This document shows positions 19,607-22,319 of a stretch of 64,000 nt of DNA, in pieces; position 1 is the stretch's first letter; the number at the start of each line of letters is the position of its first letter. The notes under the pieces were generated by a model. The model worked only from the letters and a program-made list of their open reading frames with translations. It ran no database searches and was not told where the DNA came from. Source of the DNA: Octopus vulgaris (taxonomy: Eukaryota); contig OX597838.1 in the NCBI GenBank assembly GCA_951406725.2, forward strand, positions 25,916,001 through 25,980,000. Reading direction: 5' to 3'. A program made the position numbers and the translations under genes.

Positions 19607-19740
19607 CTATTTAGAGCGTTCAGCATTTCAATGACGACGAGTACAGACAAGGCCATGGTTTTAGGTTCAGGCGATTCAAAGATGTCACAGTCGATGCCTT
19701 TGAAACGGCCCTCCTGTGCCGGACACTGAGAGTGATGGGT
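19607..19740 (-). CDS. ATP2A: SERCA mutually exclusive exon B (L7-8 and M8): [44 protein letters not shown]
   Basis: ctttag acceptor with TACTAAC branch site, GTAAGG donor, 134 nt, same phases as exon A; not in the ORF track. Confidence 0.95.
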
Positions 19741-22185
19741 CTAAAGAAATAGTATTAATGAATATTAAGGAGTTAGTAGAATTCATTAAAATAGTGGAAA
19801 AAAAAAAAAATCAAATTGGTTTCAATTAAAAAAAAAAAAAAAAAAAATCAATCCATCACCCTCTGTTGGGCTTCGTTAACATCTGCTCTGGCAGAAAAAA
19901 CTTGCGCAGTAATGTTGACAAATGATTATTATTATTATATTATTATTATTATTAATATATTTTTCTCTTCACTCTCGTGTCCGTTGGTAGTAACAGCAGC
20001 TGCCGCGATCAGATTAATAGGATGTGAAAATGGTAAAATAAGTGATCAAGAGACTCAATTGAATTCCTCCTCCTGTTTCTGGCGACATCGTTGTGTAAAA
20101 GGTAAAGGGAGGGAGATGAGAATTTGGGGGTGGGATGGGGAACTTTTTGTTTTCTCCTTTTTTCTGTTTTCCTTTCACTTTTCTCTGAAGACAAATATAG
20201 TGAAATATTACAAAGCAATGGAAGATTTTTTTTTTTCTATTTATAATATTTATTTTTTGCATCAGTTTAAAAATTTCTTATGAAATTCTTTAGAGGAACA
20301 TCCAAGATGTAACAGCAGGTGGCACCAAGACCGGGCCCCTATGTTTCTTTATTGGTTCCCGAAAAGATGAAAGATAAAGCTGACCCTAGCAGCTTTTAAA
20401 GATAGAGTACAAAGACCAGGAACAAACAGCGCTGTTTATCCAATGCTCTGATTGCCAAACACACTCAAACACATGTATGTATGTATGTGTGTATGATACA
20501 AGAATAACCTTTAGACTTACACAGCCAAGGTTCCATTGCTTTTAAAATAATATTTCATAATATTACATTGTAACAAATACGCAGACAAGTTTTTTTCTTT
20601 TATTCTTAGAAGCCATACAAGGATTGGTTTTTAAAAAGTAACACCAGTAGATTATTTTTTAGATTATTATATATGTGTGTAAAAAATAAAATTAGTCATT
20701 ATTATTATTATTATTATTACCACCATCATTGTCAATTGCTATTGAGTCATGGTGGCTTCGTGTTTAAGTTTGTAAGAAACATGCATTATTTATCAGCAGA
20801 AATGCAAAGCATCAGATCAGTTCCCATGGAACATACAAGACATTCTTTCTCATTAAAAAAAAGTCTTTGTTTTGGATAGATACAGTTGCACTGGTATCTA
20901 TCTGGATATATATCTATACCTCTACATGGATGTACATATATATCCGTAATGATATAGGATTGGAGAAAGAAAGAAATCGACACTTTGTATTTCTGCCCTG
21001 ACGCCTGTGTGTATGTACGCGCGCACGCATCATATATATATATATATATATGATAGTATTATTATATATTATATAATAGAGGTGTATAAAATGAAGAACA
21101 CAAGTAGTTATATATTTTTATACACTGTCATTTATGGTGAAATTAGTTATGGAAATAAACATTAATAATATTTGTATGCTTCCAAAATAAAAGAAAGAAA
21201 AACTTGTCGGCATTATCACCATCCTCGCCCCAACTAAACTATCAGCAAACTCTGAAAGCTTTTGAAGGTTCAGTACCCAGAACCTTATCTGTTACAAAAC
21301 AGAGAAAGTAAGGAAAAAAGAAAAAAAGAGAAAAATGAATTTTTCCCAAATGGGAAGGAATAACACATGGAAGTGAACACTAAGCACCCTATCTTGAAAC
21401 TCTTTCAGTTTCCAAGGACTGTAGTCTTTCAATACCACCCCTCTAACAATAAGGCAATGGTTCTGACATGAACAAATAGATCCAAGCTGTAACCTACCTG
21501 AACATAAGGGTAATTTTTTTTGACCCCCTCTTTTATCACGGTGTGGGGTAAGTTATAAAAATTTAAAACCAGCTTCATTTTGGACATGGCAGCTTGTCCA
21601 TTTTCATTTCAATCCACACAGGAACCTTGGGTGGTGCCTGCCCTTCTCTCTATTGTGAGACAAACACTGTCAGAAGTATTCACACTGAACGGATTCAATG
21701 TGAATACTTTCAAAGAGTATTCGGATGTTGCATTGTGTACAATCCTAGATGACCTTACACTGCAGCAAGGAATACAGTCGAGGGCAGCAACACCAAACTC
21801 CTTCATTCACCAAATACCGAATGTAAAGGTGAGGCAAAGTTGAGCCTTGCAGGATAACAACCAGGGGGATTCAAAACGATAGCAGGAGGGGAGAAGCAGA
21901 GAGGGAAGGAGGAACAACTACAAAGGATTCAAATCTAGCCATTCACAGTCCACTGGCCCTTAATAAATTTAAGGTCACCCACAAAAGGAGAATTCAAATG
22001 AGTTAACCATGTAAAAAGAAAAAATATATATACATAAACAAATTAGTAAGATACACCAAAAAATGAACAAAAACAATACATTAAAAGAATATAAAAAGAC
22101 AAAAGAAAAAAAATTTGTTTTAAAAGTTAATTTGGAGGGGTTGGTGGTGGTTTGTGTCACTAGGACTACACTGAGAAAAAATTAC

Positions 22186-22319
22186 CTGTTGAGAGCATTA
22201 AGCATCTCTATGACTACCAGGACTGATAGAGCCATAGTCTTGGCAGCAGGAGCATCAAATATACCACAGTCAATACCAGCAAATCTTGTTGGTTCAGCAG
22301 GACACTGCATGTGGTGGGT
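22186..22319 (-). CDS. ATP2A: SERCA mutually exclusive exon A (L7-8 and M8): [44 protein letters not shown]
   Basis: tcacag acceptor, GTAATT donor, 134 nt, phase 0 in and phase 2 out; not in the ORF track. Confidence 0.95.

Follow-up and report, generated by a model that had tools for sequence, protein, structure and literature searches.

The window analysed here, 64,000 nt of the Octopus vulgaris genome (contig OX597838.1, positions 25,916,001 to 25,980,000), holds the single SERCA (ATP2A) gene of that genome, on the minus strand between 57971 and 9055 in window coordinates, which are used throughout. Using tblastn with homologues, 21 exon positions were placed, running from 57971 down to 9142, and only the position of the two exons described below, A and B, gave two hits; tblastn left the exons of the first ~73 residues unplaced. 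The gene was identified as a SERCA by the P-type motifs in the exon map, by M8 with E908 and the luminal C876/C888, and by its nearest named proteins, which are SERCAs of Octopus bimaculoides (100% identical for B, 95% for A). The 2.8-Gb genome has two matches to the loop exon and one to the M5/M6 exon, which shows that the gene is single and that the two loop exons stem neither from paralogues nor from a duplication in the assembly.

The gene has some further features of its own. The intron at 29509-28554 (minus strand) is of the U12 AT-AC type, with the donor ATATCCTT, an AC acceptor and a branch-like TTCCTTGAC near 28574, and it divides the Glu codon of KSAAEM. The 'SAADIL' read-through ends of snail and limpet models suggest that the same AT-AC intron may be present there and may break gene prediction. 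There are two C-termini: a SERCA2b-like hydrophobic tail formed by read-through (9141-9055, in the region 9258-9055) and a short DYPGFF exon, which lies ~28 kb further on, outside the window (L083, G000:C25:25896656-25896677, minus strand). The M7 exon is single-copy in the exon map of the octopus window. In Lingula anatina isoform X2 (P0143) this exon, just upstream of the loop, differs from that of the other Lingula isoforms, which suggests that a second alternative exon may have been duplicated in that species.

Exons A (22186..22319) and B (19607..19740), both on the minus strand, are each 134 nt long and align without gaps to residues 871-914 of rabbit SERCA1a. The common exon upstream (26205..26291, minus strand) encodes M7 and the start of the luminal loop L7-8 and ends in phase 0 with the donor CTG/GTAGGT; the common exon downstream (10360..10477, minus strand) encodes L8-9 and M9 and starts in phase 2. 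The donor of exon A, CAG/GTAATT, is weak and has no G at +5, and that of exon B is TAG/GTAAGG. Exon A carries M874, E879 and P880 where exon B has S874, Q879 and E880. A first-pass annotation made from the letters alone had described two intact exons of the same length and phase, and we find both flanked by AG and GT on the minus strand and translating to the peptides it gave. It had also counted 10 differences in the first 27 residues followed by 17 identical ones, with 13 of those codons differing synonymously. The alignment gives the same figures, with the remaining four codons identical and an overall amino-acid identity of 77%. Since the alignment is gapless, C876 and C888, which form the C-x11-C pair, and the Ca2+ ligand E908 are kept in both copies, as had been claimed. 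The intron between A and B is 2445 nt long and the exon map places no other SERCA exon in it; by eye the introns around A and those around B are unrelated in sequence. In their layout the two exons are as expected of homologous mutually exclusive exons, being adjacent, similar in length and equal in phase, with no constitutive exon between them.

The first-pass annotation stated that including both exons or neither shifts the frame, and the translations agree. A alone or B alone is in frame. When B follows A, nt 118-120 of B form a stop, and when both are left out a stop comes as codon 3 of the downstream exon, so that both aberrant products end early. A stop well ahead of a later junction is the usual condition for nonsense-mediated decay, and both of these lie more than 100 nt before one.

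Evidence on splicing came from contigs of 4 of 24 listed runs, from four studies, placed on 19300-26400. These four were chosen by a match to exon B, their RNA status is assumed and they carry no tissue labels, and contigs drop rare variants. No matching run is on record as RNA, yet the contigs join exon ends at GT-AG sites. The junctions 26205>22319 and 26205>19740, with GT-AG ends, each occur in runs X5 and X10, from two studies. In the same two runs the first 27-28 nt of the downstream exon, starting at 10477, form the loose end after A and after B alike, so that all four junctions proposed as a check on the pair, including 22186>10477 and 19607>10477, are present in both and each exon alone is joined to the same flanking exons. 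In X1 and X16 exon B alone is found, in unbranched contigs of 3080 and 3909 nt, where the missing cover of A does not prove its absence. No A-to-B joint is among the joints listed for the four runs, which are those of contigs with rare forms dropped and do not include a further 145 loose ends. Two runs therefore have B only and two have both exons, in a set without tissue labels that was found through B. Contig depth (3295 for A against 2408 for B in X5, 1099 against 838 in X10; for B, 18 in X1 and 57 in X16) is a poor measure of expression and was not used to rank the exons. Very high contig depth was seen in all four runs over dispersed repeats in the introns, at 22855-23091 and 24040-24513, which are probably common transcribed repeat elements.

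One copy never being spliced in would have spoken against the pair, but A is spliced in two of the four runs and B in all four. With the four predicted junctions in two runs and the separate A and B isoforms annotated in many species, the mutually exclusive use that had been proposed is supported, and A and B are almost certainly a real mutually exclusive pair.

We looked for the pair in other animals. In O. bimaculoides both isoforms are in UniRef (A0A0L8FX15, A0A0L8FWD6), and database annotations list A and B as distinct isoforms of a single gene in Haliotis, Patella, Bradybaena, Crassostrea, Ostrea, Mytilus, Mya, Lingula and Watersipora. Models for cuttlefish, Batillaria, Mytilus coruscus, Echinococcus, Taenia and Macrostomum, and P0184, string both loops together, always A then B. 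Public models in which a truncated exon A is joined to B, giving a doubled loop (P0003, P0004, P0005, P0092-P0094, P0165, P0267, P0362, P0365), probably represent the mutually exclusive pair mis-annotated. Metagenome contigs were a further source, with 80 loci kept of 397 confirmed and sorted into classes by eye. Of these, 44, the class that was tallied, have tandem AG-exon-GT copies, A then B, with the same boundaries, one being cut by the contig end; the other 36 comprise nine spliced loci, ten of a one-exon paralogue, and 17 with one exon and no downstream common exon, whose class is unassignable. In some bryozoan-like loci exon B is 137 nt. The A-then-B pair is thus seen in cephalopods, gastropods, bivalves, a brachiopod, a bryozoan, flatworms and annelid-like contigs, the labels annelid-like and bryozoan-like being based on likeness to Capitella and Watersipora proteins.

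The pair is present in both of two annelid-like paralogues. A third annelid-like SERCA paralogue (L061:1784-3378 and the L070-L078 group) has only one loop exon, flanked by the common exons, and either lost one copy after gene duplication or is an older paralogue. Second SERCAs of tapeworms (P0235, P0292) also have one loop. Among the rows listed, the models for Capitella, Platynereis, Helobdella, Physella, Biomphalaria, Pinctada and Aplysia are of A type only, which is a statement about models and not about genomes. In the best 120 of 2256 proteins, double-loop models are spiralian only, bar two from sturgeon; the latter were rejected as homologues of the pair, as they repeat several exons nearly identically. 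In seven arthropod clusters and one sea-urchin cluster, each listed member has one loop, which does not vary among the isoforms of a species. From these sequences the pair appears confined to spiralians. Disruption of a copy in related species, the other outcome that would have spoken against the pair, is not what we find, both copies being conserved in distant species from molluscs to flatworms. The duplication is even more ancient than had been suggested, being older than molluscs and annelids, since flatworms carry the pair.

The residues that separate the two types lie at the start of the loop. Position 879 is Glu in 23/23 A rows and Gln in 21/21 B rows, with two insertion-bearing B rows, which also read Gln, left out of the count; none of the 13 outgroup rows has Gln here. 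Position 874 is Met in all 23 A rows and Ser or Ala in 19 of the 21 B rows, and position 880 is Pro in 20 of 23 A rows and Asp or Glu in 19 of 21 B rows. The fixed differences adjoin C876 and fall in the region of residues 875-879, which in the accessible part of a study of vertebrate SERCAs contact L3/4 (10.1101/344911). In that study L7/8 is also where the luminal sides of SERCA1a and 2a diverge most, and an exchange of L7/8 between them lowered Vmax by 20-30% and left Km unchanged. Position 879, residue 9 of the exon, aligns to D878 of SERCA2a. According to the available text of PMC11826342, the triple mutant E877L/D878L/E883L of SERCA2a transports less at intermediate luminal Ca2+, and uptake is lost altogether in C875A. 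Against a tuning effect, the result for D878 is that of a triple mutant (PMC11826342), and the vertebrate chimeras keep their Km (10.1101/344911), as far as the accessible parts of both go. A model in which one loop is simply more acidic was rejected, as the total of acidic residues has no consistent A/B difference across species. Compared with A, B has an acidic residue moved from 879 to 880 and a proline lost, with no overall loss of acid, and a change of loop shape is therefore a safer reading than a change of charge.

It would seem likely that the replacement of M874 by Ser or Ala, and of E879-P880 by Q879-D/E880, reshapes the disulfide-closed loop with its acidic residue shifted by one place, and that this would alter luminal Ca2+ release, turnover, or the access of luminal partners, with the Ca2+ site at E908 staying as it is. 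Our explanation as a whole, to which we give a probability of about 0.6, is that a tandem-duplicated, mutually exclusive pair provides one SERCA gene with two pumps whose luminal L7-8 loops would tune turnover and luminal-side kinetics differently. A tentative version, to which we would not give even odds, is a spiralian switch between a muscle form with Glu879-Pro880 and a housekeeping or neural form with Gln879-Asp/Glu880, retuning a loop that senses luminal Ca2+ and redox state and forming a one-gene counterpart of the vertebrate SERCA1/SERCA2 split. Spiralians have presumably retained the pair for more than 500 million years.

The main alternative accepts the pair as real and ancient and has it leave intrinsic kinetics alone and alter a luminal surface on which a SERCA2b-like tail, calumenin-like proteins, or a disulfide reductase or oxidase would dock, with B going with the long housekeeping tail. 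The position of the fixed differences next to C876 would suit this, as would the functions described for L7/8 in the accessible part of 10.1101/344911, namely a redox-sensing disulfide, calumenin binding and docking of the luminal extension of SERCA2b. The octopus gene has both the 2b-like read-through tail (9141-9055) and the separate short DYPGFF exon, P0382 combines B with a long tail and, as a weak pointer, the contig with B alone in X16 stops in a run of C in the read-through tail, 108 nt past 9141. However, B is found with a short tail in the transcript-derived P0013 and P0010, annotations list all combinations, and the end of the X1 contig is compatible with either tail. We regard this alternative as unlikely, though it is the strongest of those considered.

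Over residues 1-13 of the exon, cross-species identity is 0.82 within A and 0.71 within B, whereas A compared with B inside one species gives 0.57, and in the tree the sea-urchin loop groups with A. From such sequence comparisons we infer that A is the ancestral-like copy and B the derived one, and the pair very probably has a single origin, which would be one duplication in the common ancestor of lophotrochozoans and flatworms. Several independent duplications in the spiralian phyla, with the likeness of A and B across species due to convergence, would be an improbable alternative. In its favour, convergent tandem duplication of exons is known in other genes (PMC9741552, in the part available), and on the full 44 residues cephalopod A is nested in cephalopod B (97/81), so that the best tree does not hold B together and B needs two changes. 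Constraining B to one group was, however, not rejected (p-AU 0.499). Trees of the two parts of the exon, built without 4 of 59 rows that were truncated or carried an insertion, differ. On residues 871-890 all 21 B rows lie on one side of a branch with an SH-aLRT of 96, in a quick tree of few columns whose split was picked after the full-length tree, and on residues 891-914 the types mix and group by species, with seven changes. The mixing at the 3′ end favours convergence at face value, but is also what exchange between neighbouring copies would give. Against convergence, order, boundaries and donor asymmetry are identical in all tandem loci, and B has an invariant Gln879 in animals as far apart as octopus and tapeworm, which the outgroups lack.

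A split-tree test of copy exchange, applied to the cephalopods and one annelid-like gene, gave a higher likelihood for the species-wise arrangement on 891-914 with nothing significant. Cephalopod A and B have P877, R882, K897 and V906 in common, and both copies of one annelid-like gene share M874, K897 and I909-C910. Residue 906 of exon A is Val in octopus, and Thr in those A exons that were compared from gastropods, bivalves and the brachiopod. Residues common to A and B within a lineage may reflect old exchange between the copies or their co-evolution on a shared body. The first-pass annotation had attributed the identical last 17 residues to an old duplication with purifying selection on both copies and not to an artefact. 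The age and the authenticity of the copies stand, but purifying selection may not be the sole cause, as the identity is partly cephalopod-specific (V906 against T906) and exchange or co-evolution may add to it. In the annelid-like locus L009:1964-2864, A matches B at 45/51 nt over the last 17 codons, compared with 37/51 in octopus, a hint that copies there were exchanged more recently than in octopus.

As to how one exon is chosen, the donors differ consistently. G at +5 is found in 0/27 loci for A, in 24/27 for B, and in 15/19 constitutive donors of this gene, the 27 loci being not independent but derived from about 7-9 lineages. In the intron 3′ of exon A lies an ACTAAT (22042..22047, minus strand), a candidate STAR/Quaking-type enhancer. 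ACTAAY within 150 nt after A is found in the octopus window and in 12/14 loci of one annelid-like gene (1.14 expected from shuffles), and GCATG lies there in 7/7 loci of the other annelid-like gene; in bivalve-like and bryozoan-like loci neither is consistently present. A TACTAAC, which is a consensus branch point, lies ~35 nt 5′ of exon B (19772..19778, minus strand), in a place not conserved in most related loci. We take ACTAAY, as in ACTAAT and TACTAAC, to be a STAR/Quaking-type motif and GCATG an RBFOX-type motif. Steric exclusion was rejected because the A-B intron is too long for it, with 2445 nt in octopus and lengths of 130-793 nt at 26 related loci, and a U2/U12 mismatch was rejected as the splice sites are all GT-AG. 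The region 18500-26300 has 149 inverted repeats, of which the 25 longest are mostly pairs of simple sequence or dispersed repeats and include no obvious docking/selector pairing of the Dscam type. In the mechanism we propose, exon B would be the default through its strong donor, exon A would need a tissue factor, most likely one of muscle, that binds shortly after it and activates its use, and nonsense-mediated decay would clear the double-inclusion and skip products. That B is the default and A the regulated, muscle-leaning form seems likely from the shape of the splice sites and the two against two unlabelled runs; the B-only runs X1 and X16 fit B as the default.

The decay of out-of-frame products could also be the reason for the pair, with the loops near-equivalent and the exon choice wired into the tissue level of SERCA. 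The early stops in both aberrant products and the identity of the M8 part in octopus would agree with this, but equivalence does not predict type-specific residues fixed across phyla, and no A+B or skip joint is among those listed from the contigs. We consider this still less probable than convergence. An assembly artefact or a dead copy, for which near-identical tandem segments in bad models such as the two from sturgeon give a precedent, has a negligible probability and is refuted by the splicing of both exons, along with the saturation of synonymous sites and the presence of both isoforms in O. bimaculoides (B 100%, A 95% identical).

SERCA is one of the most thoroughly studied pumps. If the explanation with two differently tuned pumps is true, this natural and clean loop swap would isolate what L7-8 does. 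The retention of the loop pair across five or six phyla would mark L7-8 as a tuning point under long selection. Measurements on SERCA in molluscs, annelids and parasitic flatworms that used one cDNA, or primers in common exons, would apply to one form only or to the two mixed. Several gene models are wrong in that they string both exons together.

We found no description of a SERCA A/B pair in the literature searched, the coverage of which ended at subscription journals, including older papers on scallop and pearl-oyster SERCA. In the parts covered, PMC3265369 does not describe the pair but an intron at G310 instead, and a study reporting higher SERCA in scallop striated muscle (PMC5963113) makes no mention of its splicing. 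ATP2A/SERCA is absent from the main text of two human catalogue papers (PMC9741552, PMC8373072) and from part of the supplement of the former; their fuller supplements could bear on this point. The first-pass annotation knew of no internal SERCA exon swap. It was right in that the literature yielded no description, but both isoforms are already in UniProt and among RefSeq models, unremarked. What we have here is a textbook mutually exclusive exon pair that is new for SERCA, with its isoforms already in the databases.

Tandem homologous mutually exclusive exons are catalogued in PMC9741552 and PMC8373072, and examples of the kind are those of Ca-alpha1T across protostomes, the muscle myosin heavy chain clusters, coq-2, and exons of NALCN and Cav3. 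The octopus pair resembles these in that its exons have the same length and phase, are used one at a time, are ancient, belong to a Ca2+-handling membrane protein and shift the frame when both are included. The SERCA2a/2b-type splicing of vertebrates, Artemia, C. elegans and Pinctada resembles the octopus case in having one invertebrate gene, tissue variants, and long and short tails, but it alters the C-terminus only, according to the accessible text of PMC3527596 and PMC6987452, whereas the octopus gene exchanges an internal homologous exon for L7-8 and M8. The three cloned Pinctada isoforms are all of A type, so those studies could not see the exon pair. A further likeness is to the L7/8 loops of vertebrate SERCA1a and 2a, which are again two versions of a disulfide-closed loop with differences clustered at 874-896 (10.1101/344911, PMC11826342, in the parts available). 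The vertebrate loops, however, are products of gene duplication, and a loop performs best on the body it belongs to (10.1101/344911), whereas both octopus loops evolved on one shared body; they are thus free of the mismatch of vertebrate loop chimeras, and make the role of L7-8 in luminal Ca2+ sensing, redox control and tail docking directly testable.
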